Assembly: GCA_049999805.1 (NCBI GenBank)
Contig: JBNGIO010005971.1
Span: 1 to 64,000, forward strand
Length of the DNA stretch: 64,000 nucleotides
Origin: Folioceros fuciformis
Lineage: Eukaryota
Reading direction: 5' to 3'
This document shows positions 1 to 64,000 of the stretch, one piece after another. Below the pieces are notes generated by a model. It saw only the letters and a program-made list of their open reading frames with translations, searched no databases and was not told where the DNA came from. Positions within the stretch are counted from its first letter, which is position 1, and each line of letters begins with the position of its first letter. Both the position numbers and the translations under genes were made by a program.

Positions 1-449
1 GAAAGGGGGAAAAGGGATGGGGGCGGCCGCAACCCCTACCTCTAGCTCTAGCTAGGGCATGGCCTCCACAGCCGTTCATGCCAGCTAGGCAATCAGCCAG
101 CCTATCGTCAGACCTTGACATACCCAGATACCCGTTCCTATGTTCAAACCATTACTATATTATTTTATATTATTATATTATTTAATCATTTAATATTATA
201 TATCTTTAATTAATATTAAACTAATCACCCAACCTTATGGCCTGGTACCGAACCTAAACCTTCCCAGGTCTGAGACCAAACCTATACCCACTCTTATAAC
301 CAAACCAACTGTTTCCTGGTCAATTAACCTAATTAGCACAAAGAAAAATAGGAAAAATGACCAGAAAATCAAGGAAAATTAGGGAAAATAAGTAGAAAAA
401 GAAAACCAAACCATACCACTATTAACCCTTTTTCAACCAAAACAAACTA

Positions 450-1166
450 CTACCCCAAACTTTGGAGGTTCACAATGAGAAAACGGAAAATCATCGAAGG
501 GCGGGGGGAGGACAGAGTTAGATTCTTCCTCTCCTCGTCCATCCTGGCGTACAGGATTTTCTCCCAATCCACCTTGCTCCCCTTGACCACGTTGTGCACA
601 AACAGGAGCATCAGATCGGATAGATAATCTTGCTTGCAAACCTACAGGAAACACAAGAACCACCTAGCCAAACCCTTCAGCTGGGAGTTGGCCATATCGC
701 GGATCAGCCACCCATTGGCTTCCTTCTTGGTTCCCGGCTTGAGCAGCACCTCGGCGTCCGCTGTACCGCTTCGTTTCTTCGGGGACTCCAACACCAGTCC
801 TCCCTCCTCTTGCTCGTCGCGGCCATACACCCGCCTTACCAGCTCCAGGTTCCACTCCTGGGGTTTGCTGCTAATTCCTTCTTCCCGGGCAAGCTCTCTC
901 ATCTTCAGGGCGCACTCCCTGACCAGCTGCGGCGCCGCATGGTTCCACCTCTGAGTCATGAACCCGAGGCCCAGTTCTCCGACCAGTCCCCCGGCTCTAA
1001 CCCTCTAATGCTCCATATTGGGCCACAGGAGCACATTGATCTTTGGTACCAAGGATTCTCCTTCCTGCTCAGGTACCGTTACTCCTGGCAGCAACTCTGG
1101 TCGCGATCTCATCCTGCGTGATTCTCCCCCGTACTCCGAACCCTGCTGCCCTCGTGCGCTTGTCAT
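450..1166 (-). pseudogene. Decayed ~238-codon ORF of unknown function, probably transposon-associated
   Basis: One frame runs from ATG 1166 to TAG 450-452, broken only by TAG at 1005-1007 and 642-644 (track ORFs 1005..1274 and 642..959 share this frame). It reads ...NGWLIRDMANSQLKGLARWFLCFL*VCKQDYLSDLMLLFVHNVVKGSKVDWEKILYARMDEE... Upstream on the minus strand is TATAAAACCCTAGAGAGAGAG (~1290-1310). Confidence 0.5.
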
Positions 1167-2667
1167 CGCCAAGTTCTCCGCTCGCTCTGCTACCTGCCCA
1201 AGCTTCCACTCCACTCCCGGCCGTGGTCGCGCTTCGCTTCGCTTCGCTCCAACCCGCGAACGTTCCTGCCTCAATTACTGCCCAGATTTCTCTCTCTCTA
1301 GGGTTTTATACCGTTCCACTACCGTCGGTTGGGCTACCGCCGGTTCCCCTGTCACGGCTACCGACTACCGTCACCCAGTCATCACACTCTGGTTTTCAGC
1401 CTAAGTCCACCATTACCTAAGCCCCTACCCCATTTCCTATTTCTTATTTCTCAGGGGGGCATATATAGACCCCTGAACGCCCCCACACCACCAAGGGCCA
1501 AGGACACCCTTGTTCACACTTCTCCTTGGCACCACCAAGGGCCAAGGACACCCTTGTTCACACTTCTTTCTCCTTGGTCCTGTCACTCAATCCTATCAAC
1601 CTTCTCCTTGGTCTTGTCACTTAATCCTACCCACGAAGGAGCCTCTTGGGTCTAAATACCCAAGTATTATTTCCATACTTGAGCCGTTTCATTCGTATCT
1701 CACAAAAAAAAAACACTGCCCTTCAAAAAGGGAGTTCCGAAAGTTTTTTTCTTCTACATAGCATAGCTCAACTCTTGCCTAACTTATCGTTTCTTGCCAA
1801 CATTTGTCATTGAGGCTTGGTGGCTTCATGTTGTTGTCTAGTTCTAGTCGATGGCTCTTGAGGTCCGACATCTTGTTGCGGACGAGAACTGTTGCCATAT
1901 AACACCTTTGACTTCAAGGTCCATGAATGCACGCTCCACTGTAGCACACATCTTCTTTTAACTACATTTAGACACATCCATCCATTTTTCCAACCCTTGC
2001 ATCTTAACTTCAACAATATGTTGCACCATCGTCACCATTGTAGCATGTCATTCTACAAAATGCCCACCGTAACCCAAGTCATTGAATGCTGCTGTCTCAT
2101 CATCATCACTACCAATAGACACTGAACTTGCGAGAATGTTGTGTACCTAGTCGAAGCCGCTTCTAAACAATAGCAACAAGCAATGCTCTGTTCTCAACTT
2201 TCACTACAATGCTTTGTGGATGGACACAATCATTGCAACAAAATTGATCACGCGGTCAGCCCCCACCTTCTCGGAATCTTTATTCCATATCACCCCCAAG
2301 GGTGACTCCTCAGTATGAACAGGTGCACCAAAAAGGTCTGTTGATGGGAGTGTAGAGTCGGCAACACAATGCCTTTGTGGGTGCTTGGTATGCCTGCCCC
2401 CAGTCTGCACTGTTCCAACCTGGGCCAAGATGGGGTTGTGTGATATGCTGTCACGTTCTGGCCATGAGTTTACTACAGTGTTAGCAGCACACATGGTCCA
2501 ATCACCATTAGGAGACATGTATCCAATGTGCCTCCCCTATCCACATACTCCCGAAAATGTTAGTAACGTTAGCACATAAGGAGGAAGACAAACAACAAAT
2601 CACACCTTATGTGACAAGTAGATTTCAGACTGATCTACCACCACAATCAAACTGTGGGAGGGATACA

Positions 2668-2679
2668 CACCTCCTCCCC
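2668..2679 (-). other. Candidate polypurine tract and 3' LTR start of the gypsy element
   Basis: The minus strand reads GGGGAGGAGG (2679-2670) directly followed by TG (2669-2668), ~700 bp downstream of the pol stop. No matching 5' LTR was found, so this is unconfirmed. Confidence 0.45.
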
Positions 2680-3371
2680 ACGGTTGCTATTATGACGCTC
2701 ACAACTTGCTCTGATTCCTGAGAAGTCACACAGCATAGCACATGTCCCCTAGTAAGGTGCAAGCTGTGCACCGCAGCGGGCTGCTACATGAGAACTTCTA
2801 ACAATTGCCTAGCTAAGCCCTGCAGTCTGGTACTCATCTGTGCCGCCCTTGCTTCTGGTTGTTGCCCACGATCTCACTCCACACCGTCGGGGCCATGCCG
2901 CCCACGCTCGCAACCATCTTGTGCAATGATGCCCGAGCTGCCCAGTCGCTCATGTTCGCCATCATCCAGCACCACATGTTTGCCCTTCACGCCTCGCTCC
3001 TGAGCCCTAAACGAACCCACATGTTTCATGCTGGCCAATTCGGGCTGATTATCTAATAATCAGCATAACTACCTAGGTTAGTCTACCTAGGTTAGTTAAT
3101 TACCTAGCCTAATTGATCAACATAGCCTGACAGCTGTCGTGCTAAAACAGTGTTAGCTAAAAGTGCCCTTGACATTAGGCAAAAACGAAGAACCTAACCT
3201 CACACTCTCTGAGAAGGTTGCTGTGAACATGACTCTTAAGGTAGATGAGAAAATGAGCACAAACGAATGGAATCTTGGTAACCTTATCCCCCCCCAGTGT
3301 GGTGCTACAAGCCACCAAAACTGCAGGCAAGCTCTATCAGATGCCAAAGAAAAATCCAAGAGTTCACCTGA

Positions 3372-3540
3372 TCAGATGTTACTGGTGTCTCTAGCTCGGC
3401 AAAGAGGACAATACCACAAATTCTCTGGCACCTCAGTCTGTGGTGGCTGAAGACAAAATAGGTAGTAGCCTCCATTACAGCCATCACACAACAACATGAG
3501 CTCTGGATCATCAATCCTTCTACCCACCTGACATGGATAA
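3372..3540 (-). other. PHD finger at the integrase C-terminus (degenerate)
   Basis: CQVGRRIDDPELMLLCDGCNGGYYLFCLQPPQTEVPENLWYCPLC has C4HC3 PHD spacing with LLxCDxC, CLxPP, VP and WYCPxC. The 2nd Cys is changed to Gly and the His to Tyr. Confidence 0.88.
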
Positions 3541-4500
3541 TCAGCCAAAGGGACCCAATTTTCTGTGACCAGCGTGGAGTCCAACTTGGGTAGATGGCAT
3601 GGGGCACAGTTTTTCATGTGGTCTGTTGTTACCCGCCCATCAGACGCTTCCAGCAGCAACACTCCATTCCTACGCACCTCTCGCACACGTAACACATGCC
3701 TGCTAGTGCTAGGCTCCTAAGTGTCTTATGTTTGCCGTTGTAAATAGATATAGTCCCCTGGCTGAAATTTCCTGACCTTAGGATGGAAACTCCAACTCCT
3801 GGTATGAGCATACCTGAGTGTGTCACAATGTTGGCATCACATGTCTGAAAAAGGCTGCACGTTCTCCAATAGCCTTAGCCTAGGCTGCTGGGTTGTCCGA
3901 ACTTAACACCTCTTGCATCTGACGAGCAATGGCCACAGGTGGCACTAGCTCTCTCCCAAACAATAGGAAGTAAGGTGAGAAGTTGGCCAGTGATGCATGC
4001 TTGCTCATCCTGTAGCCCATAGCAATGTATGGCAAAGCCAAGTCCCAATCTGTCTTGGGCTTGGCGAGACACTGCTTCCTCAACGCCTGTTTGATGGTCT
4101 GCACCATCCTCTTAGCCAACCCGTCTGCTTGTGGGTGATCACGGCTTGTGCGCCGGTGGTCAATAAGTGCAACATCCAGCAGATCCTAAATCCACTCACC
4201 TCTGAATTCAGCTCCCTGGTTTGTGAGGCACTCAGCATTGCTCCCAAATCTGCTAAGCACATTGTGCCTCTGAATGAGGGTTGCTAAAAGAAGCCTTGAC
4301 CCTGTCACATTGAGCACATCTGGCCACCTCCTCGCGCACCTGAGTGAACACACCATGCCAGTGGAAATGTGGAAGGAGCAGACTGTAGGTGCGCTTCACT
4401 CCAAAATGGCCTAGATCTTCATGCACTCTATGGATAAGCCCTGCACGATCCTGTGGTGGAGGCACCAAACGTTCAGCCCTGTTGGCCAGCCTCCTCAGCA
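3541..4500 (-). pseudogene. Gypsy integrase with an internal deletion in the catalytic core
   Basis: The HHCC zinc domain (HEDLGHFG...CAQC) is followed almost immediately by the late core (DHRRTSRDHPQADGLAKRMVQTIK, DWDLALPYIAMGYR, SPYFLLFGRE). The first catalytic Asp region is not recognisable. Confidence 0.85.
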
Positions 4501-4749
4501 GGTACCCATCCCTCCATTCATAACGGGCTGCTCTCTACTGCACTCTCTCTTGCTTATGTACGTCCAAGATAACATCCATTTGCCCAGTCTTCACATACTG
4601 CAGTGTGGCTTCGTCACTCCACACATCCTTGTGGAGCTGAAAACGGCTATTAGCACAAACTTGTACCACACAAAGCATTGTCACCAAAGTTGCAGTATTA
4701 GGAGTTTCCTCCATGTCACTGTCCTGGCGAGCCTCAGTGTTGTCCTTGC

Positions 4750-6100
4750 TACTCTGTCAAGGGTTGCGTGACAATACATCTGCATTCTGGTGCTTGGTTC
4801 CAGGCCGATGGACCACCTCAAACTCATAGTCCTGAAGAATCATTGCCCACCTTGCGTGTTTCCCACTAAGCTTTGTGTTAGACATCAGCCATTTCAAGGG
4901 CTAATGGTCTGTTACCAAGGTAAACATTCGCCCGTACAGATAAGGATGAAAATGGCAGATAGCCCATTCAACTCCCCTTCATAGCTAGAGTAATTTGCTT
5001 CTGCCCTGTTGTTGCTTCTTGAAGCATAGACAATGACCCTCTCTTGACCTCCAGCATCCACTTGTGCTAGCACAGCTCCCAGCCCCAAAATGCTCTAGTC
5101 TGTATGGAAGACGAAAGGCTTGGTAAAATCAGGCCTGGCCATGACTGGCATTTGCATCAGCTTGCTCTTCAGGCTCTCAAACGCAGCTTGACAACTTTCT
5201 GTCCAATCCTAGGCTATCTCCTTGCGCAACAGGTCATTCAAGGGCTTAGCAATGCTACTAAAGGCCTGGACATAGACCCTATAGTAATTGCACAGCCCTA
5301 AGAGCAGACACATTAGTTGGAGCTTGGATCTGTTGGATGGCTTGCACCTTAGCAACATGTGGTGTTATGCCATCTGGCAAAATCCGATGCCCAAGATATG
5401 CAAGTGTGTCCATAGCAAATTCACACTTGGCTGGATGACATGTTAGCTGGGCCTTTTGCAACCTCCGAAACAAATCCTCCAGATGCATCAGGTGAGTGTC
5501 AAAGTCCACACTATGGACCAACACATCATCTATGTAACACAAAAGGTGAGGAGCCCCTGCTAGTACTTGTTCATGACTCTTTGGAAAGTTACTGGCGCAT
5601 TTTTGAACCCAAAAGGCATGTGACTAGCCACTCCCTTAGCTGGTGGACTCCATGAAATGCTATCTTGGGAATATACTCCTCTGCCACTGGCACGTGATTG
5701 AAGCCCTATCGCAGATCCAATGTAGAGAAGAACTTGGACTGTCCAATGCTGTAAAACAACTCCTCTGGTGTGGGCATAGGATACCTATCAAGAGCTGTGG
5801 TTGCATTGATGGGACGATAGTCCCCACACATTCGTTTTTCAGTCCAAAAGCCTTGGCTGTCCTTCTTAGGTGGAAGAATAGTGGCAGTTGCGTAATCCAA
5901 ACTAGAGGGCCTAATTAGCCCAGCCTTATACAACTCCTAGCAGTGACCTTCCATAGTTTCCCATTCAGACTGGCTCAACCTGTATCTGCGCCTATAGATA
6001 GGCTCAGTGGTGTTGAGCTTAATCCTGAATGTCATGACATTGCACCTCTTGAAATCCTCCATGCTAAAAGCAAAACAATTTGAGTACTGTAAAAGCAAAG
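4750..6100 (-). pseudogene. Gypsy reverse transcriptase and RNase H
   Basis: RT motifs PIYRRRYRLSQSE, GLIRPS, RMCGDYRPIN, DRYPMP, LDLR*GF, MPFG, YIDDVLVHS, KCEF, YLGHRI; RNase H motifs D*S, LGAVL, ASR, NADVLSR. Frameshifts near 5610, 5545 and 5285. Confidence 0.93.
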
Positions 6101-6399
6101 CCCGTATACACTGCCTCTGCCCTGAATCCAGCTGAGGACCCATGGTCCAACTAAAAGTCTCCGTAGTAGGTGAAGCTTTGGCAGCCGTTGACAGTCCTAG
6201 TCTTGGATCCAACTCTGAAGCAAAAAAAACAGGTTTGGGACACATGTGCTCCCCCCCGCCCCCCCCCCCCCCTTGCGTCGAGCTGGTAGGACCGGTAGCA
6301 AAAGCCAGGGAATGGCAAGTGAACAGCATCAGGATGACAAGAAAAAGTACTGGTATGGACAGTAGCGGATCCTAAGCCTCGAAGTCTGGTGAGCACCTA

Positions 6400-7355
6400 A
6401 AAGCCAAGCAAAGGCTAACCAGCCAAGTCAAAGCACTGACATCCATGGCACGGCCAAGTGCTGCAAACCTCTGAGCCCTGGAAGCCTTGGGTGCACCTGT
6501 GCTATGGGTCTGGAAACCCATCACATGCTCCCTTTCCTCCACTGTAGGTTCCTCCCACACCTTGGTATCTTCATTAAAAAGCATACCAGGACCGTTATTC
6601 CTATAAGCATAGGAGCCAGGATAGCTGACCACAGTGGGTAGAGTTCTCCTTGGCTGGCCAGGTGTGTTGGTAGGAAACCAAGGAGCTCTCTCCTTGGCTG
6701 CAACAGGCTTGGGAGTGTGATTGTCATCCAAGACATCTCGTAGGAGACGGGTGGGCTCCCGCTGCTGTTGTTGTAAAGCCAAGTGGAAGATAGGCAATGG
6801 GACCAAATTGGTCCAATAATTCTTGAGTCTGTGAGCATAGCTGCCCACCTGAGCTGCATCCATAGTAAAGGGAGGTCCAATGATGTGGATCATAGCCATG
6901 TCTTGGCGCAGCTGTGGCCGAGCATCTAATTGGGCTGGTGTGTTCCCCAGCACCTAAGCCACTTGAGGATGTTGATCCTGTAGCCAGTGAAGTACTTGCA
7001 CCAGATCCCTAAATAAGCCTGAACGGTTATCTTGCAACCCTGCTCCTTTCCCAGCTTGAGATAGGCCTTGGCACTCCCATACTGCAATTAGCAAATCCAC
7101 ATGCCCAAGGGCCTGAATGTGTGCTTGCTGGATGTACTGGATGTTTTGTGGGAGAGCATCAAACATGCTCTTACTGGTCTGCCTGGAAAATTGCTGGGGA
7201 AACTGCTGCCGCAGCAGGTGCACCGGATGTGCGGCAATGTGCCTAACAGCTGGACAGACATTACAATAGATGTACATGAAGACTGTGATGTCACACCTTA
7301 GCACTGCCTCAAGACCAGTGCATAGGCCCCCAAACAGCTCCACTAAGGTGGTACC
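6400..7355 (-). pseudogene. DNMT3-like C5 cytosine DNA methyltransferase domain inside the retrotransposon pol
   Basis: Motifs in canonical order: I LVELFGGLCTGL; IV DLLIAVWECQGLS; V GLQDNRSGLF; VI *VLGNT (ENx degenerate); VIII DAAQVGSYAHRLKNYWTN; IX EEREHVMGF; X RFAALGRAMDV. It is in the same frame as the downstream RT, separated only by TAG codons. Confidence 0.88.
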
Positions 7356-7839
7356 TTGTGGTGAAGGTTGCCTAGTAATCACAGACTGTTGAACAGGAGA
7401 AACATGTGCTCCCTCCCCTATGGCTGGGTCTGTGAAAGCTTTCTGCAGCACTTGCATAACACAAGTAACTGTCTCTTGAGCTTGCTGCATATGCTCCTTG
7501 CTGGCTATGGGAGGCTTAGAATGGCTGGACCCTAAGGCTTGAGAGAACAGCTGTGCTCCCAACACACCTTCCTTATGAGCATGTGAGAGGACGTCCTCGT
7601 CCTCTCCACACTTAGCTAGCCATACTTGAGAGTGAGGATCTGGTGGCAATAGGGGAACTGGCCCATCCCCCAAAGGCTGGATCTGCACCATCCAGGCCTA
7701 TCTTTCCACCAGTGTAGCCTCAGCTGCCTATGCAGCCCCATACAAATCCAAGGGCAGGTAGGCAATTCGCTTCCCCTCCTGCTGCTAATTTGGCCTAAAA
7801 AAGGCCTGTTCTATCCAGTTGTCAATTGAGACTCCTGAG

Positions 7840-8161
7840 GAAACAAAAATTCCCGTCCTAATAGAATGTCATAATTGGTGGCACCCTTGACTAGACAACG
7901 CACTGCCAAGCTCACCTAATCTGCTGTGTTGGGCTTCAAAGTGATCTTCACTGGTTGGACTGTTTCCCCTTTCACAAGCTCAATTGCCCTCGAAGCTGTA
8001 CGAATGTTCCATGGGGAAGGCTTCAACGCACTCCCTTCTAGCCGCAGCCTAGCAGCCAAAACCTTCCCTATGATCACTGGTTGTGCTCCTGTGTCCAATA
8101 ACACAGCTCTAGGCGCAAATCCATTTACTAGCACATGACTAGCCCGATTGTCCACAAGCAC
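7840..8161 (-). pseudogene. Retropepsin-like aspartic protease
   Basis: AVLLDTGAQPVIIG, then after one TAG (7916-7918) NYDILLGREFL. In frame with upstream ORF 8213..8899. Confidence 0.88.
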
Positions 8162-8212
8162 ACTGTTTACTGTAGCCTTGCGCCGGTTTGTGGGCTGTAC
8201 GATTGGTAGACC

Positions 8213-9160
8213 CTAGCTTTCCCAAGCCAATTGTGCAGCTTGCACAGTCTTGCCGAAAACAAGTGAATCCAGCCCTGTCTGACCATGATGACTGTTGCAA
8301 TCATCAGCCAATAGTACCTCAGCATGTGGAGACTGCAACACGGTGTCCATGCTGGCCTCTTCAATTCCCACACCTTGTAGGCTGAGCAAGGGTGCTGTGT
8401 ACACCCTCTTCAACAACTCCTTGTGCGTTAACACCATGGTCAGCAATCGAGCAGCCTGATCAGACTTGTGTGTGTCTAACCTGTGATGCTGGCTAGGAAC
8501 CTGGTCAGTCCTTTGCTCCACTTGATCCTCTTGAGGTAGATGATCTGACCCTCTCACTGGTATGCTGGACCCTAATGGCAGTTGCTGGAAAGACCTGGGC
8601 ATTATAGCCCTAGCTCCCTGCTGACATGTGGTGACAGCGGTCGTCTCTAGGGTATGGCCCGGCCAGGTTTGGGGTAACTGTACATCAGCTCTGGACAAGT
8701 CAACCTGCCCTAGGCCTTTGCCATGCAACGGCTCAGCCTTGGACTGCTTCTTGTGTGTTGCACAAGCCTCCATGACTGGTCCATAATCTTCACCAAGATC
8801 ATCTGATGTCCCAGTAGTTACAAGTTCCACACCATTGGCAGGCTTAGCAGCATTCAAGCTTGCCGCTAAAGTGCTGAACTGAGTAGTCAATGCAGCCATG
8901 GGCAGTCATTTTGTCTGCTTGAGTAGCAAGCTTCGGCTTAGCCTTGTCGCGCTTGACTTGGCTCTTACTGGCAGGATTTCCTTCTGTAGCTGCTCCTGCC
9001 GAGGCACTCCTTGAGCCAGTTGCTCCTGTTCCAGCAGTGGTAGTAGGTTGGGAGGTAGCACTAGAGTCTGCCCCTGTTTTCCAAGGTCGCCGCTCTGGGT
9101 ACTTTGAAAAACAAACTGCCTCTGTTGTGTGTGGTTTGCATCTTCTGCAACATTATAAAC
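8213..9160 (-). pseudogene. C-terminal part of gag (zinc-knuckle remnant plus linker)
   Basis: CRRCKPHTTEAVCFSKYPERRP near 9150-9085 resembles a CCHC knuckle. A low-complexity linker follows, and ORF 8213..8899 is in frame with the protease. Confidence 0.55.
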
Positions 9161-11363
9161 GAAAAGGGTTCTTGTGCAAACGGTGTTGCTCAATTGCAAT
9201 TGGTGAATTCTCGTGCATTTTGAAATGGTGAGAATCTTTGAGATTAGACTCCACAACTGTTGAGATGTCACCCCCGCCATGCTCAAAGGAGGTTAAAACA
9301 AGTTAGTTGAAGCAAGATGCAGAATCCCAAAACTAAGAGCACTATAACAAGGCTCTTAAACTCAAATAAAAAAGGAGAATTACAAAACAACACAATACAA
9401 GTGAAGAGGGAGTTAGACTGCCTCTACTAAGTGGGTTCATCCCTTCTTTTATGGACCTATGGGTGGCACTCTCATTTCGTGCCCAATATGGGATAAATGA
9501 CCCTACAATACTTCTTTTGCCCAACATAGCAAAGTCTAATAAGCTATATATATATATTAATCATAACCTTAATCACTCTTACCACTAATTAGTACAAACT
9601 CAATAAGCTGGATTAGCACTAATTAATATCAACATTAATCATGCTTAACAACAACAACTAGAAGGGTCCTTAATTATTCAGCCCCTTGCAGCTTTGTTGT
9701 GTTAACATTACAAACACCTACAAATCGACGCATCTACAACATTCGTAGGTCAAACCTACAAGTGAGACCTCTCCTCTTGACACAAATAAGAATATAGATA
9801 AGTGAAAATGGTTAAGCATCATTGACATTTCAGATATACCATACACGTAGGCATGGTTGACTTGTAAGCTGACCACCAAAGACCAAGGAAAACCAAACCA
9901 AAAGATACAAACAAAAAGAAAAGGAAAGCAAACCAAACCACTTGTTGGCAAAAACTCAAAACAGTAGCATAGAAGCCTGTCCCGTATCCCAAAATTTTTC
10001 ATCCCATAGTGGCACCAGAGTCACAGAAGAAGATGGAGATGCACCAAAGAGAAGATGGAGATGCACCAAAGAGAAGATTGGACACTGAGCAATGAGGGAA
10101 GAAGAGAATCAAGAGCAAAAATACACTACTCTAGGTCACAACAACTTAGTGGCAAGTGTGCATAGCATTGGGGAGGAGGGAAAGCAAGAGAGTGATCACG
10201 GTGCTAGAGAATTCATGATGGTGTGAAGAGGTGTGCAATCAAAAGTAACTAGTGCACTAGGCGTAAACCAACAACATCTGTCCTCCTCTCGCGAGAAGGT
10301 CTTGTAGTGGCATAAGAACTTATATGGCCATAATGGAATTATACATCCCAACCCCTTCTTAGACCTTTATGCTCCTCCAGTAGTTGTCCTTTAAGTGCTT
10401 TGCTATGTTGGTGTTAGAAGGCATACATCTGATTAGTCTATACTCTAACGCAGGCATTGAAGTATTCGAAGATGATATGAAGCCCAAAACTTGTTTATTT
10501 ATTTTGGATTGGAAAACTCCAACATAACAAACAAAAAGGAAGAAAAGAAAAGGAAAATAAAAAAGCAAGTACTCCAGTGAGGTGCGGCCAACCTTCTTTT
10601 CTCAAACCTTATTGGTTCCACACATAGTGAAAGATGTTTTCAGCTCTTGTTTTTGTCTTTTGTTGGGAAATTCCACATAAGTTGCATTCCATTGAGCCTC
10701 GGGTCGGGAGGCTTACCTTTACTTTGAGTAGTACGGATAATGATCACAAACTAGAAGTTGTAACCTCTCCTATGAGGTTTGTCTAATCCTTGTAAATCTA
10801 GCAAAAAAAAAAAAAAAAAAAATTTCTTTCCAGCTTGGTCGGAGTTTTGAAAAGACGAACTTTTTCAAGGACATCTCTTTGTGCAGCCCATTTTATATCA
10901 CACGTTGAAAACATCTTTGAGAACATTTGTCAACCTTCAAATGGGCTTCCCTTAGCTTAGCATCTTCTCCAAGGGTTTGGAAACCATCCTTCTTTCAAAC
11001 CCACAAGGGATATTTTGATATGAACCATAAATAAATTTTAATATCTCAGGTGATTTTTTAAATAATAGAATATATATATATATATATCCAAGTAATTTAC
11101 TTAGTTAAATAAAAGTCATAACCTATATATGAATTATGCTATTTTTATTAGGTGAAGGAGTTGTTAGATTGCACTCATCAAAACTTTCAAGCAATAATAA
11201 ATTAATCAAAATATAATTCAGACTAATTTATAATATTAGTTTAATTAAAAATTGAGGCTTGGAAATTTGTTTAAAATGGGCAAGCCTTTGTGGCTATCTT
11301 GCAAAATGAACAATATGTACTAAAAAACGTTGTAAAAACAGTACTTGTTGAAACTTGATTCCA

Positions 11364-14300
11364 ATGGCGGAAAAGGTAATTGTACCAAAGATCTTGAGGG
11401 ATGCTTTGTGTTGTGGACCATTTGATATTAGTTTTATTTTGTGAATCATTTATTCTTATCTTTATCTTAGTAGGGAAATGTTAAAAAGTTTGAGAACTTT
11501 TCGAATGTGGAAAGAGTTCATGAAAATTATGGAGTAGTTCAATGTTACTTCTCGTTCCAGAATGACAAGAAGGAAGATATTCCATGGAGGAGATACTCAA
11601 TAATGGATTCTCCTACTAGACACTATTCTATTCATGGACCCGATGAAGAATGGAGACTCTTCTATAAGCAAGGAGGACCTCCAAGAAAGAAAAAAAAAGA
11701 ATATGTATCTATTGAAAAAGTGCTTGCAGACAAAGCATGGCTACAGAAGAAAGCCTCAAAAAGGATTTCAAGAGATTTGGAGCTTAGTGCAGCCATCAAG
11801 AGACAGGTTGTTATACTTTCTCAACTTGGTGCATTACAAACTTTGTTTAACATGTGGGTTCTTTAATAAGCCACTTTAATGTTTTCCATTAGATCTTGGA
11901 GGATATTCACTACATGCAAACAAGACTATTACCTACTCAAAACCCACGTTATTGCACTCACCCACCAAAGACTTTCAAGGTGCAAATGGTTGTACTTTTG
12001 TAAAATGATAGTAAGCTTACTCATTAGTTGGGCAGCTTAAAAAGTTCTCTAGTAACAAATCTTGTGTGCAATAGGCATTGAGACTTTTTCAACTAAAGAT
12101 CACAGATGCTGGAGCTATGAGCTATCTCCTTGTAGATCCTCACTTAATTCAATTCATAGGATATGGTAGTGTGCCAGAATTTCTGAATTCCTAGTATGCC
12201 AATCCCATCCATCTTCTGCATGAGATTGCAATCATAATCAATCGAACAACAAGAATGGTTCACTAATACTTTAATTGAATGACTACAGAAATCGGAAAAA
12301 GTTATGTTGCCCAACTTTTATTGCTGAACATGAGTCCTTGGAGCCAACGGCTAAGGTTTGATTTTGAAGCAGTGACATAGTTTCACTAATTTATATGAAT
12401 AGAGTCAGAATCAAATTTGTAGAGACAACTAAGCTTGATTTATTTGAATGCAGGATCATTAAACCTCAAAGCAAGTCCTACTCTATGGGTTCAGATGAAT
12501 TACCATTCCAGGGAAAGACATTGGGTCCAGGAACTACTTGTTCATTCTATGTAACATTCAATCCTCGTAGTACACATGAAGGTGAAGATTACATATATGT
12601 GAAGACAGAGATGGATAAGATACGAATCAGACTTGTTGCTCACCAGCCTTTACCTGCTGTGTTCAGTTTCCCAAAGAAAATTGACCTAGGAAAGTGTTTG
12701 GTTGGACATGTTGCTTCTCACACCTTTGCCATCACAGCTATGGGTGCTTGTGCAGCATTTCGCCTGCTCTTAGAATATCGTTCATCTTCTCCTCCAGCAC
12801 AGCAGTTAAATCCGGGAGTCGATATGATTTATGTATGTCACAACATACTACTGTTCCCTCCTTTCGTTGCTTATCCTTGTTCTCTAGAGTTAGAAGCTGA
12901 GGAGACTGGAAATATCATTGTGTTGTTCAGACCTTCTGTAGCTGGAAAGTTCAATCATGTATTGAAGCTTGTTACGGATAGTGGCATTGAATGGAGGACC
13001 ACTGTATGCGGTTGTGCAGTAGACATGGTAGTAGATTTTGCACATCTGGATAAACGCCCATTTCGACCTGGAGAACTGGAGCTTGGGTTGTGGATCGGGG
13101 AAGCTACTGTTTCCTCCAGCACTGAACGAGAGATCAGCGTGATCAACAAATGCAGTGTGAGTTTGAGATATTTCTGGAAGGTAATGAACATGCACCCCAA
13201 GGACAAAGACAGGAATTGGGAAAGTGATACCATGGCACACACATACGAGAAGGAGGTTTTCTCCATGATTCCAAGCAATGGGATCTTGCTGCCAGGTGCT
13301 GAAGGGGCAACTACAATGAAGTTTGCACCCGCGGATGTAGTGGTGTACAAATCTCGTGCAGCTTTGTATGTGGATACTCGACACTGCAGCTCCATTCATC
13401 TTGAAGATGCCTATCGTGAAGTGCTGGATGTTCTGAACCAGGTGGAAACAAAGCTTAAGCTGACGAATGGACATACCTCGTTAACCAATATGAAAATGAA
13501 TTACACCGAGAATTACACTGGCCTCCGCCTATGTGCCATGGAATCTGCCAGGGGTGGGATATTCAAGGTACTGGAGGTTGATCTGATGGGTTCAGGTTCA
13601 CCATTCCATGTGCAGCTGTTTCCATCGGTGTTGTGCTCAGCAGGACTGTTAATGTTGGGCAAATACCATCAGCACCAGGTTTGGATCAGAAATAACGGAA
13701 TGACACCCATTTCCTTTGAATGGGATGTGATATGCAGGAGCAGCCCTTATTCAAATCTTGTGCAAGTGTCTCCCATCAGGGGTACAATTGGGGCCGTGTC
13801 AAGCCTCAAGATCTGTCTGACAATCCGAGCACGAAAAATTGGTGAGCTACGACGGAGTCTCTGCTGTGCGCTCCGAGATCCTAAAGGACTGTGCTATACT
13901 CTATCCTTGGAGGTTCAGGGTTTTGTGGAAGGTCCCGTAGTGACCATCGACGAACCGGTGCTCGATTTTGGGATAATACAGGTCCGAAGAATACACTCTG
14001 CTGACCCATGAGGCTGTCCTTTGACATACTGTGATTCATTTTTGATGATGTAGGCAGACCAGGTCCTCCTATACGTAATCATTTGGGTTGGTTGCAGGTG
14101 GCCTGTTTTTTTGGATGATTTCGCAACATTCACGGGTCTGTGATATGGCTTGTACAGGTGAAGAGGCAGGGCTACCTGAAGTTGAATGTAACAAATCATG
14201 GTAGTGTTGCAGCAGCTTTTCAGCTGTCTTTCACACTTCCACCTCCAGCAACGGTCACCGATGCACCCTTGGCTTCTCCTGGGTTTTGTAACTTTGTGAA

Positions 14301-17300: not shown

Positions 17301-19080
17301 GCACGACATCCGAGGTCCCGCCGGACAAGCTCGAGATGACAAAACGAAGTTGCAGACTGTCTACTGCCGTGTCAAGCCCACCACTCAATTCTGAGAGCAA
17401 CAAAGGGCCCCAGAAGACCTCCAAGACCTCCCCTCCTGCTCCCACGAAACTGGATGATAAGACATCAAGGCCTTCAGTTGTCCCCGAGCCCGAGAAGGCC
17501 GTGCCGCCCAGCACAGATCCCGGAGCTGTGATGGACATCAAGCCCAAGGTAATAATCTGACACAACATGTCATGCAAATGTAGACGCACATGCAGACGAG
17601 CACGCAAATGCGCATGCATGGCACACCAAACATCTAAACGCCAATGACGGGGGTGGTTGTGGTGATGGCAGCCCCCCCGCTCCAACAGCGTCCTGGATCT
17701 AAAGGATCTGCTCATCAAATTCTCGGACACCTACCAGCAGCTGGTTCCATTGTACGGGGAGCTGGTGTTCCCTGAGGTGCGACTGCTCAAAAGCACTCTG
17801 TGGAATCCGCCTCCCGAGTCACGGGCGGCAGCTCCTGAGGTGCCGGTAGCGGAGCCCGGAAAGGAGGTGAAGCCGGACGCGAAGGGGGCAGGCAAAGGCA
17901 AGCCTGACGCGAAAGAGGCAGGCAAAGGCAAGCCTGATCCAAAGGGAGCAGGCAAAGGCAAGCCTGACGCANNNNNNNNNNNNNNNNNNNNNNNNNNNNN
18001 NNNNNNNNNNNNNNNNNNNNNNNNNNNNNNNNNNNNNNNNNNNNNNNNNNNNNNNNNNNNNNNNNNNNNNNCAAGCCTGACGCAAAGGGGGCAGGCAAAG
18101 GCAAGCCTGACGCAAAGGGGGCAGGCAAAGGCAAGCCTGACGCAAAGGGGGCAGGCAAAGGCAAGCCTGACGCAAAGGAGGCAGGCAAAGACAAGTCCAA
18201 GGCAGGAAAAGCTTCCACACCGGCCACCCCACCAGCAGCAGCAGGCTCGAAGAAGGGCAACAAACCAGCTGCTGGTGCTGGTGCTTCAGAGGAGGAGGCA
18301 GCGGAAGCCACACCTGACTTGAGCCAACCCACGTGCTTACCAAATGCAGATGGTATCTGGGAACTCTGGTTCGGATCCGTCTCCCTTGAGATGTCTCAAA
18401 CGTTCGAGGTGAGCATCATCAACCCCACCATCGCCCACGCATTCTGGGAAATTGCCTTAGACGGAACCAAGGGAGAGCCTTCCCCCTGCCTCGACCCAGC
18501 GACTCCTCCTCCTCCGCCCCCGAAGAGACGACTCACTTTGACAGAGGTCAGTATGAGCAATATATCTCTTTTTTATCTTTTCTTTTCCATAAAATTCAAT
18601 ATCATAGACAATATATACATGTATGTATCTATGTATTGATTTTTGCCAAGATATCATAATAGTATAAAGATATATGTTTTTAAAAGAAAGAAAGAAAGAA
18701 AAATAATGCATGCTTAAGTTAAGAATTATCTTGTTGTTAATGTTTATTAGTAACAAACGTTTGAAAAACTTAGACCATTGTTTTTTTTCTTCTCTTTCAT
18801 AAATTTGTTGTTCAGAGGAAGATGCTGAGGAAACAATCTGTACATGGGCCCTACGAGCAATGGGAGATGCATATGAAAGTGGGGAAAAATCCTCATGTCA
18901 ATTTAAGGGAACTTCATGAAAGTTATAATATTGCACAAACTTTAGACAATGCAAATAGATATACCATGGATACCCAATGGCCATACAACTGGAGCAGGGC
19001 ATTCGAAAGAAACCCTAGAAAGTCTTCTCGTTTTTCAATGCTTGATCCCAATCAGGTTAGTCTCCACAATTGAGTGAGTT

Positions 19081-53887: not shown

Positions 53888-53960
53888 GGGGATGTAGCTC
53901 AGATGGTAGAGCGCTCGCTTAGCATGCGAGAGGTACGGGGATCGATACCCCGCATTTCCA
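53888..53960 (+). tRNA. trnA-AGC: tRNA-Ala (AGC)
   Basis: GGGGATGTAGCTCAGATGGTAGAGCGCTCGCTTAGCATGCGAGAGGTACGGGGATCGATACCCCGCATTTCCA: 73 nt, cloverleaf, G3-U70 pair. Confidence 0.96.
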
Positions 53961-55671: not shown

Positions 55672-55754
55672 TCCGACTTGCCGGATTCGAACCAGCGACC
55701 TAAGGATATCTGTTGCTCTACAGTCCTCCGCTCTACCAACTGAGCTAAAGTCGG
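55672..55754 (-). tRNA. trnY-GTA: tRNA-Tyr (GTA) with 10-nt intron
   Basis: CCGACTTTAGCTCAGTTGGTAGAGCGGAGGACTGTAG-agcaacagat-ATCCTTAGGTCGCTGGTTCGAATCCGGCAAGTCGGA; the acceptor stem CCGACTT/AAGTCGG is fully paired. Confidence 0.96.
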
Positions 55755-61230: not shown

Positions 61231-64000
61231 TTTTTTATTATACTTAAATTACAACAAAATTATACAGTTGGTAAAATTATATGGCATGTGTAAATTGATA
61301 CACCTTTTGTAATATAATCTGGTATTTTCTATGATTGAAAAAGAGATGGAAAGTCTCATCTACTCCAAAGATTGGAGGAACAACCCCATTAGGGCCAAAA
61401 GCAAAAAGATGTACTCTCCCATGCGAATATCATTTTCAAAACCTACCTACTGCTCCCAAAATGTCATGATGTGGAATAACAAAAGACCTAACTACCACCG
61501 ATGCCGAAGAAGCCGCTTGACCTGTGCTTGTTGCTGTTCTAAAAATTGCATTGGCCAATGCACGTTGCAAAGCAATGGATACACGTTGTCAAAAGAAGGC
61601 CACCACAGAGGAAAGAGGGAGAACACCATTCCTATTGCTCTGATAAACCTTGGTGCACTCCTTGATAAACCTTGAAAAGCCCCTTGCCCCATACCTCCAT
61701 GAGTCTCAAGAGCAAGGGGGATGAAAGTATGCCCGTCTTGCAAGGGAGAATACTTATGGATTTTGGCACTTGCACAACTCTCTGCCGCCCCACTAGGGGG
61801 TTGATGATGACGTGCTCACAAATCGAATCCCTAGTGGGATCCGTAACAGCCAATTCAGCAACACAAACCTATTCTCCCCTAATGAAGAAAACGTCGGCTC
61901 TAAGTGAAACCCCATTGCGCAAAGTATATGGACGCTCCCTATACGGAAGAAACCCACACTCCCTAGCCATTGAGAACATGATATCCCGAACTGCATCATG
62001 AGTGGCAATGCGGTGCCCCCCAACAAGACAACGTGCCAAATGGAACCTTGTATCAATGGCAACCCCACAACTACATGTAAAGAGAGAAAAAGCCAAGGGG
62101 TGGGCCAAACCTAAGCGAAGTCTCATCGCGGTGGCGAAAGTTGCTGGTGCGATTCGAAACGCATGAATGCAAGGTCGAGCTAAAATCCAAGAGCCCGCTC
62201 CTTTACCTGAACAAGATCGAATACAAGCTCGAGAAGACCTAGGGATGGATGAGTCTGAAAGCAGGGCTCTTAGTGCTTGGCCATATTTCTTTTCTAGGAG
62301 GGAGGCTGGAGACCCTTCAACCCTTCCCTAGAGAAGGAGGTGAAAGGAGATAGAGCCTCACGAGCCTCCAAAGGTAGAGAATCCCTCGCTTGCCTAAGAG
62401 ACACCTGTAAAGGGAAAATGCCCTCCTCAACACTTGAAATAAAACTTTCAAGAACAGGGGAATCTTGTAGCAAAAAACGAGAGGCCAAAATTTGAGCAAA
62501 GAGGGCCCTGCTTCCAAGAAAGGCGGCTGGGGCAGAGTCCTCCATGGCCAAAAGACCAACCCCTCGAAAGACGACTAGCAAAGAAGCTTGCTTCCGAGCC
62601 AAATCACCGACAGCATACTCGAAGGTGCCTAGACCTATGATGTTCCCACGAGCTTGCATAACTTGATTGTCAAACTTCTTGAGACTTGATAAGAGAAATG
62701 GAGAAGGCGCAACAGTTTTAGTGAGGTAACATGGTCGGCGTGCAAAACAAGAAGAAAGGATACTAAACGCAATCTGAGGATCACCGATTTGTGAGAGGTC
62801 CATAATATGAACCACATCTTCATCCAACGCTTCATCCACAAACCTATGAACAAAATCAGGAGGTCCCACAGGCACTCCCAAGACTCGAAGTCCCTGCGAG
62901 TAGGTGATATCCACCCCCCTCCCCCTCCCCCCCCCCCAAATATTGAAGGGGGGGAGTGATGCTTGAAGGGGACCAAACCCTGCATTTAAATAGCTTGACC
63001 CGCAACCCCACCTTGGAGAGCTCTGACGATAAGAAATCAAATGTTGCTTTGTTTGTGACTTCTTGCCCAAGAATATGAGTGTCATCAGCCATAGAAGGGA
63101 AAGGCATTCCCGAAATGCTAAGGTAGTAGAGGACAACGCATGAAAATGCGCCATTGCAAAAAGAGCACCCCCCTAGCGGATCTCCTTGCCTTGTACCTGT
63201 TGCTGAATCAAAAATTGAGATCCCCTCAATAGTCGGGCCGTGTTGGTAGTAGAGCTTGGATGGCGAGCCATAGAAGGAGCGAATAAAATGGGTAAGACTT
63301 GCCAATTGACCTCCTGCACTCTTGAGCTCAGAGAAGATGGCAACCCTAGAGATGGTGTTGAAAGCATTTTCAATATCAACCTGCAAAGCTACTCAGTGAG
63401 GATGTAACTCAAGGGCCGCCAGGATGTCGAGAGCGGCAGATTCACACCCACCTGGGGTAGCAATCCCAAATTGGTGGGGTGCAAGATGCGCTTGGAAGTA
63501 CTCCCGAAGTTGAATTGCGATACTTCGGCTGATAAGGCGCAAAAATACCTCCCCCACAGCAATATAGCGCACTCCTGAGGTGGGGTTTTCCAATGCAAGT
63601 AGCCTACAAGCCGCCAAAACTTGAGAGATTCGATTGGGAACTTTGCCCCTAGCCACAGCATCTGCTAGTGTGTAAAGCTCCGAAAAACCACTTGAGGGAT
63701 CCCGAGGAGAAAAATAATCTAAAAAATGGTCATAAACTGTGCCAGACAAACCCCCTGAAGAAAGTCGTGGCGCAAAAGAGAGTGCATGCCCAAGAACAAC
63801 CTTATCCAAGCAAAAAGCCTCCTCGACCGTATGGTCAAGAAGATCTTGTGGTATAGTGTCATGAGGTTCTGGATGAAGGGCATTAAGTGCAGCAATGGTG
63901 TCCTCAGTTGCAAATGCAGCCGGCTCTGGGCGCAATGCTCTAGCAGCTCGAGCATATTCACCATCCTTGCCCAACATGAGACACCGCTTGAGACGCGCTT
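61231..64000 (-). mobile_element. Degenerate CRE-clade-like non-LTR retrotransposon (RT plus restriction-like endonuclease); continues beyond the window
   Basis: RT: RYIAVGEVFLRL, PHQFGI..GGCE, VDIENAFNTISR, GTRQGDPLG, MADD, GLRVLGVPVG. Zinc knuckle: CSCG..HLARC..GG.RIATHDAVRD. RLE: RADV, VTDP, FIPLALETHGG, QRVSIALQRALA. Frameshifts and stops throughout; A-rich 3' end at ~61231-61240. Confidence 0.9.

Follow-up and report, generated by a model that had tools for sequence, protein, structure and literature searches.

The stretch analysed here, called the window throughout, comprises the 64,000 nucleotides at positions 1 to 64,000 of contig JBNGIO010005971.1. On its minus strand, at about 8200-3381 by Pfam and tblastn, lies a decayed Ty3/gypsy pol that contains a cytosine-5 DNA methyltransferase domain (DNMT) resembling DNMT3. 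We consider it very probable that this element is a dead copy of the Gypsy-DNMT3 lineage of streptophytes, that of KnitGypsy-Dnmt3, with the layout gag, protease (PR), DNMT, reverse transcriptase (RT), RNase H (RH) and integrase (INT) plus a PHD finger. The element is of a known kind, already published as a charophyte family, and is not new in kind; the host range of Gypsy-DNMT3 is probably extended by it to land plants.

The methyltransferase domain and its setting in pol

The motifs of C5 methyltransferases quoted in the initial annotation are indeed present in the minus-strand translation of 7691-4800 (LFGGLCTGL, WECQGLS, AHRLKNYWTN, EEREHVMGF and LGRAMDV). Within 7691-6372, Pfam recognised DNA_methylase (PF00145) with a score of 24.2 bits (cut-off 22; E 2.6e-5). 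A HMMER search of 1.84 billion representatives returned 1230 matches at E<=1e-3, of which 624 reach E<=1e-10 and 217 reach E<=1e-30; the top match has an E value of 4.5e-68 and 41% identity. Since the best E value is so low and so many matches fall at E<=1e-30, the similarity is far beyond chance. Identity to any database protein was 31-41%. A word-index protein search with the window DNMT at near lengths gave no match, which reflects a sensitivity limit of that search because HMMER found more than a thousand relatives; with the family alignment at longer lengths it gave seven matches, none with a named organism. A further five ENA proteins of 1226-1281 aa combined DNA_methylase with zf-CCHC or a gag-type protease.

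Against solved structures the window domain matched 42 sequences at E<=1, and the top 16 were DNMT3A (best 1.3e-5). In the alignment with DNMT3A, motifs I-VIII fall on 12-172 and motifs IX-X on 235-274, which is the canonical, non-permuted order. A family profile built from 24 domain-sized relatives and the window sequence matched 54 sequences at E<=0.001, the first 29 being DNMT3A, 3B or 3C (1.2e-24 to 5.7e-18). By enzyme, the E values ran from DNMT3A (1.2e-24) and DNMT3B (8.8e-22) through plant DRM (3.4e-13) and M.HhaI (2.3e-9) to DNMT2, and no DNMT1 chain appeared among these matches. In addition, an AlphaFold model of the relative P0091 (pLDDT 89.3) was compared with Foldseek: the matches listed were all DNMT3A/B/C, the best with E 1.1e-16 and a target-normalised TM of 0.80. 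The proposal that the enzyme is DNMT3-like and not DRM-like is therefore borne out by both the profile and the modelled fold, which support a DNMT3-type fold for the family. Pfam scans detected no PWWP, ADD or other companion domain attached to the window DNMT.

The same scans gave the order PR-DNMT-RT-RH-INT-PHD for the element. The methyltransferase had been placed inside a Ty3/gypsy pol between protease and RT, and there it lies, embedded and intronless, with the protease upstream (8134-7844) and RT, RNase H and integrase downstream. Two intact metagenomic polyproteins, P0061 (2188 aa) and P0167 (2327 aa), carry zf-CCHC, protease, DNMT, RT, RNase H and integrase. That these relatives encode the DNMT in one gag-pol open reading frame supports the suggestion that the methyltransferase is made as part of the polyprotein. 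Residues 969-1495 of P0167 align to window positions 7370-5622 in a single tblastn match that runs through DNMT, linker and RT, and its protease, RNase H and integrase are collinear with the window on either side of this match. These comparisons support the interpretation of the DNMT as an integral pol domain of a Ty3/gypsy element. The idea that DNMT and RT share one frame holds in part: the start of RT is in the DNMT frame, but RT leaves that frame at about 5620. The protease frame differs from the DNMT frame, with a shift between 7856 and 7697. For the possible gag remnant further upstream we found no Pfam family and no match to the gag of relatives. The element features are collected in Table 1, together with the neighbouring genes.

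Table 1. Features of the element and of its surroundings, with the supporting matches
Feature	Position	Strand	Evidence
Possible gag remnant	8216..8905	-	Open frame 5' of protease, 230 aa stop to stop; weak, position only
Aspartic protease (PR), decayed	7844..8200	-	Asp_protease_2 24.9 bits and gag-asp_proteas 28.3 bits at 8134-7844; P0167 776-886 matches 8200-7856 (tblastn); one in-frame stop
DNMT3-like C5 methyltransferase	6372..7691	-	Two open frames, 7691-6954 and 6953-6372; domain proper about 7370-6399 (span covered by tblastn of relatives)
Linker and reverse transcriptase	5297..6149	-	N-terminal part in DNMT frame, C-terminal part frame-shifted; RVT_1 (cut-off 29.6 bits): N-terminal part 23.8 bits at 5870-5613, under cut-off, C-terminal part 33.9 bits at 5554-5381; tblastn segments of relatives 6149-5622 and 5614-5297
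RNase H, two frames	4715..5292	-	RT_RNaseH_2 84 bits at 5205-4963; RT_RNaseH 47 bits at 4972-4826; tblastn segments 5292-4972 and 4972-4715
Integrase: H2C2 zinc-binding domain and catalytic core	3829..4630	-	Integrase_H2C2 46.7 bits at 4462-4292; 4627-4277 matched by P0001 1058-1173 (tblastn); core 4263-3829 with 42-46% identity to P0167, P0172 and P0001 (tblastn)
Integrase C-terminal extension with PHD finger (3533-3399)	3381..3836	-	Pfam PHD 34.0 bits, cut-off 24
PLS-type PPR gene with E motif, 1058 aa	same contig		Pfam; E motif 43.2 bits
CFAP65/HYDIN-type flagellar exons	window		Pfam
Mitochondrial carrier	window		Pfam
MOT1 gene, single exon	window		Pfam

The copy itself is dead, as had been proposed. 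Over its seven collinear segments the element has accumulated 14 in-frame stops and shifts frame 6 times, and the TAG codons reported in the DNMT frame were found in frame at 6956-6954, 6374-6372, 5939-5937 and 5708-5706. Motif VI is broken by a stop and its conserved Glu is absent, and the acidic motif-II position reads Asn. The window DNMT has neither an intact frame nor the motif-IV Pro-Cys (it reads Glu-Cys) nor the motif-VI Glu. CpG observed/expected is 0.25 in the element, compared with 0.35-0.75 in the host genes of the window. CpG is strongly depleted, and the copy is old and inactivated.

Sister copies, related elements and phylogeny

Two runs of the window's organism, from one sample (X1 and X2), gave 525 and 416 contig pieces, respectively, that matched positions 3000-9500 at an identity of at least 80%. 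In X1, 181 pieces were at least 99% identical to the window, 78 fell at 95-99%, 77 at 90-95% and 189 below 90%, so that 344 of the 525 lay below 99%. Differences in X1 were transitions at 592 places and transversions at 256. Summed depth over the DNMT bins was 25-154, compared with 10-15 for the locus's own contigs, a depth that is not a copy number; the multi-copy depth extends through the PHD-finger tail of the integrase. The organism thus clearly has diverged sister copies that include the DNMT part, and the objection that sister elements might lack the domain is not borne out. Two runs from other organisms (X3 and X4) gave only 7 and 40 short pieces, nearly all below 90% and mostly from RT, RNase H and integrase, too few to judge whether related species have the form with the DNMT. 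No second copy of the element was found within the window.

We classified 174 related proteins with BLAST probes, and an earlier pass with one probe set agreed. In layout A the DNMT stands before RT, as in the window; layout B reads RT-RH-DNMT-INT-PHD. The DNMT followed RT or RNase H (layout B) in 77 proteins and stood directly before integrase (probably layout B) in 21, while 10 had it before RT (layout A), 57 were DNMT-only fragments and nine had no DNMT. Of 22 proteins examined for layout B with Pfam, 11 proved to have it, and layout-B proteins match the window in permuted order by tblastn. As far as sequence similarity can tell, these searches show a family much larger than the published one: it comprises 217 clusters at E<=1e-30, occurs in two domain orders and repeatedly carries a PHD finger in the integrase. 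We found no description of layout B in the published literature on these elements, as far as its available text goes.

By exact-sequence look-up of 30 proteins, 20 occurred in metagenomes only, nine in Closterium sp. (NIES-53, -54, -65 or -68) and one in Klebsormidium nitens. Three Closterium proteins have the DNMT before RT (P0071, P0107 and P0120) and a further one, P0004, has zf-CCHC before the DNMT. The K. nitens protein, GAQ93235.1 (P0085), is partial and ends without RT; its zf-CCHC (297-313), protease (598-691) and DNMT (from 833) follow the window order. Intact layout-B polyproteins (P0001, P0008, P0019 and others) come from metagenome contigs. A scan of metagenome DNA with the family alignment gave 80 loci, of which L001 (full layout B) and L003 (partial layout B) alone had RT or integrase, and none had the window's layout; a scan with P0006 gave no locus. 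L001 is a full open layout-B copy at 1646-6307. One layout-B relative carries an extra Tudor domain. Another protein, P0150 (ENA, 1457 aa), combines RT and a C5 DNA_methylase with a weak match (23.9 bits, below cut-off) to Dam, an N6-adenine methyltransferase. In this it is reminiscent of the 'EpiLTR' elements with two methylases that a 2026 preprint describes.

Phylogeny was approached through both the RT-RH and the DNMT domains. The RT-RH tree (IQ-TREE quick) held 57 rows, namely 50 of layout B, three of layout A, three others and the window, the last translated across its breaks, which were written as X. The window grouped with the three layout-A rows, including Closterium P0107, at an SH-aLRT support of 98. 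A FastTree analysis of 140 DNMT rows placed the window in a 24-row set (support 98) that consisted of the window, all six layout-A rows and 17 fragments, K. nitens included, and that contained none of the 70 layout-B rows. A second DNMT tree (IQ-TREE quick, C20) had 53 rows, from which the long-branched P0150 was dropped and in which the first 26 of 70 layout-B and 4 of 19 probable layout-B rows were kept. The layout-B rows formed their own clade in the RT-RH and the C20 trees. Together, structure and RT-RH support well the assignment of the window to the layout-A lineage, while the DNMT position appears unstable, lying with layout A in the FastTree analysis and at the base, beside layout B, in the C20 tree.

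Pattern matching in the 140 domain rows indicated which motifs the family retains. The motif-IV Cys is kept in 123 rows, preceded by Glu in 73 (both layouts), by Pro in 40 and by another residue in 10, with no match in the remaining 17. Motif VI Glu-Asn and motif IX are each kept in 124 rows and motif VIII in 122. K. nitens has Pro-Cys, the window and Closterium Glu-Cys. We had considered the 'WEC' of motif IV as a product of decay and rejected this, Glu-Cys being a trait of the family. Among 250 random pairs drawn from 50 polyproteins, mean identity was 42.7% for the DNMT and 46.9% for RT-RH (r = 0.53), a sign, at the protein level, that the two may be under similar constraint. The domain is conserved nearly as well as RT-RH over the family, which at this level lends no support to the objection that it evolves neutrally in all copies. 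A Ka/Ks below 0.2 has been published for the KnitGypsy DNMTs (de Mendoza et al., 2018; PMC5890265).

The integrase tail of the window is 36-46% identical to the integrase-PHD tails of layout-B relatives (tblastn). Its PHD finger, in which two zinc-ligand positions are changed, had KDM5/Lid PHD1 as its best solved match (E 1.4e-13), with further matches to BAZ2B, KDM5D, KMT2D, BAZ2A, WSTF, UHRF1, CHD4, ATXR5, PHF21A and AIRE. Many of these closest solved fingers are readers of the unmodified H3 tail (H3K4me0), which the ADD domain of host DNMT3 reads too. By analogy, we would guess that the integrase PHD finger is a reader of H3K4me0 type.

Host, activity and alternative explanations

Several observations weigh against assigning the window element to a methylating, KnitGypsy-like lineage. 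No long terminal repeats (LTRs) or direct or inverted terminal repeats flanking the element were found within the window, and its ends are unplaced, an absence that says little because the copy is old and its 5' side meets other high-copy sequence at 9076. No PHD finger was seen in the two full-length layout-A relatives. The C20 tree puts the window DNMT basal, between a layout-A grade and the layout-B clade (support 89), as sister to the latter (support 88) on a long branch of 1.16, both supports being unstarred. In identity, this DNMT is as far from K. nitens (34%) as from layout B (35-40%) or farther. The Glu-Cys of the window subfamily replaces a near-universal Pro-Cys, and catalysis by the Glu-Cys form is conjectural. 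Finally, the KnitGypsy DNMT gave no methylation in a yeast assay, a result its authors regard as inconclusive (PMC5890265).

The sequence that abuts the 5' side has a depth of about 16,000-48,000 at 9076-9500, and probably beyond, in the organism's own runs, compared with 10-20 for single-copy contigs, which points to an extremely abundant repeat or organelle-derived DNA. The neighbouring 10-12 kb region is AT-rich (GC 0.36). No Pfam, tRNA or Rfam match was found in either, nor any Pfam family on either strand of the flanks 1-3400 and 9000-12400.

The element lies in a gene-rich stretch whose content fits a land plant with motile sperm as the probable host, one whose proteins are missing from the databases. 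An Atlas search with the PPR protein pointed no further than 'Streptophyta'. Klebsormidium and Closterium were rejected as hosts by the MOT1 matches and the flagellar gene. Alternatively, the host might be an unsampled flagellate streptophyte alga, or the contig algal contamination, in which case the element would add only another charophyte. We consider this unlikely, even though every named organism among the element's relatives is a streptophyte alga and MOT1 is not close to any named protein: its best match is an unnamed protein (56%), followed by mosses, liverworts, a lycophyte, ferns, conifers and flowering plants at 44-51%. However, all named proteins among the best 120 MOT1 matches are from land plants, none being named Klebsormidium, Closterium or Chara. 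Moreover, the same contig carries a PLS-type PPR protein with an E motif, a class typical of land plants, and the CFAP65-type flagellar exons exclude Zygnematophyceae.

Elsewhere in the window, a 30-nt tandem repeat array at 17840-18234 surrounds a run of N at about 17970-18070 (220 N in the window), which marks an assembly gap. An open frame at 62859-63392 on the minus strand has a motif resembling that of non-LTR reverse transcriptases (VDIENAFNTISR), and two neighbouring frames gave no Pfam match. Rfam places tRNA genes at 53888-53960 (+) and 55672-55754 (-), of which ARAGORN calls only the first, as tRNA-Ala(AGC).

Live members of the Gypsy-DNMT3 lineage would translate the methyltransferase within Gag-Pol and package it in the virus-like particle, where it might stay with RT or be cut off beside it. 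The enzyme could then act de novo on freshly made cDNA or on the target DNA around the insertion, and the new copy would therefore arrive already marked. The integrase PHD finger might tether integration to a particular state of the H3 tail; our guess of H3K4-unmethylated chromatin as the target follows from the closest solved PHD fingers being readers of that state. Packaging and methylation of new cDNA or the insertion site is a published idea (PMC5890265).

A different possibility is that the DNMT of live elements does not methylate DNA, acting instead on the RNA genome or serving as a non-catalytic module that binds DNA or S-adenosylmethionine. The negative yeast result (PMC5890265) and the Glu in place of the motif-IV Pro in about half of the rows would fit such a role. 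Nevertheless, we judge it rather improbable, more so than an algal host: each of the catalytic Cys, Glu-Asn in motif VI, motif VIII and motif IX is retained by 122-124 of the 140 rows, the fold and the profile are DNMT3-like, and DNMT3 domains borne by DIRS elements methylate CG de novo (shown for SymbioDIRS; PMC5890265).

A one-off event unrelated to the algal family is another conceivable origin: a gypsy element in this genome could have captured the host's own DNMT3 gene or inserted next to a DNMT3 pseudogene. The lack of LTRs, the single copy in the window and the low identity of the DNMT to any database protein would be expected of such an event. It is, however, largely refuted, and we give it very little credence. 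DNMT, linker and RT align in a single match to intact polyproteins of equal order; the PR-DNMT order recurs in K. nitens and the DNMT-RT order in Closterium; RT-RH groups with layout-A elements at a support of 98; and the DNMT part is represented among the organism's sister copies. Domestication of such an element as a host gene, for which the gene-rich region might speak, can be practically dismissed in view of the 14 stops, the 6 frame changes, the CpG value of 0.25 and the multi-copy nature of the sequence in the genome.

Returning to the Gypsy-DNMT3 reading, it may be extended to a lineage that combines a writer (the DNMT3-type enzyme) with a reader (the H3K4me0-type PHD finger), that survived the move from alga to land plant and has intact mobile members in the host, the commoner layout B, present in hundreds of protein clusters from the environment, being a domain-shuffled offshoot. 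As a whole this extension is possible but doubtful. If true, the element itself would both direct its new insertions and methylate them in advance, and would then be a source of de novo methylation outside the DNMT3, DRM and CMT pathways of the host.

Comparison with known systems

Retrotransposon-borne DNMTs are in print, in the sources as available, for dinoflagellates and streptophytes (one charophyte), and the name 'Gypsy-DNMT3 of streptophytes' is that of a bioRxiv preprint (10.64898/2026.05.21.726589). In the literature we found no report of DNMT-carrying retrotransposons from land plants or Closterium. The closest described system is KnitGypsy-Dnmt3 of K. nitens (de Mendoza et al., 2018), which shares with the window element an LTR/gypsy pol with an intronless, non-permuted DNMT3-type domain, the order zf-CCHC, protease and DNMT, and motifs I, IV, VI, VIII, IX and X. 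It differs in the DNMT itself (34% identity; Pro-Cys there, Glu-Cys in the window) and in the PHD finger that follows the integrase in the window, the term 'PHD' being absent from the main text of PMC5890265 as available. The window host, moreover, is probably a land plant, and the window copy is dead. For KnitGypsy-Dnmt3 a DIRS-like repeat arrangement has been described (PMC5890265).

The layout-B metagenomic gypsy elements resemble the window in the DNMT clan (35-41% identity) and in RT, RNase H and integrase (32-56%), but they carry the DNMT between RNase H and integrase, whereas the window has it between protease and RT. SymbioDIRS-Dnmt3 of Symbiodinium likewise carries a DNMT3-type domain within its Pol, and its lineage too shows two layouts; it is, however, a DIRS element with a tyrosine recombinase and not a gypsy element with a DDE integrase, and its DNMT was judged an independent acquisition by the authors (PMC5890265).

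Host DNMT3 (mammalian DNMT3A/B/C, plant and moss DNMT3) has the same catalytic fold and motif order, DNMT3A/B being nearest, but is a stand-alone multi-exon gene with reader domains (PWWP/ADD in animals, DUF in plants), whereas the window DNMT is intronless and within pol. In contrast, plant DRM is circularly permuted, with motifs VI-X before I-V. Chromoviruses likewise bear a chromatin-reader module at the integrase C-terminus, which is a chromodomain there and a PHD finger in the window.

It is strikingly odd for a retrotransposon to encode the very enzyme by which such elements are normally silenced. The comparison shows that some family-wide features are not yet described; in the window element the Glu-Cys motif and the integrase PHD finger stand out. 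With Glu-Cys at the catalytic loop in roughly half of its members, the family poses a concrete biochemical question. Should the host prove to be a land plant, the lineage would extend into the embryophytes, whose methylation pathways are best understood and open to genetic tests.

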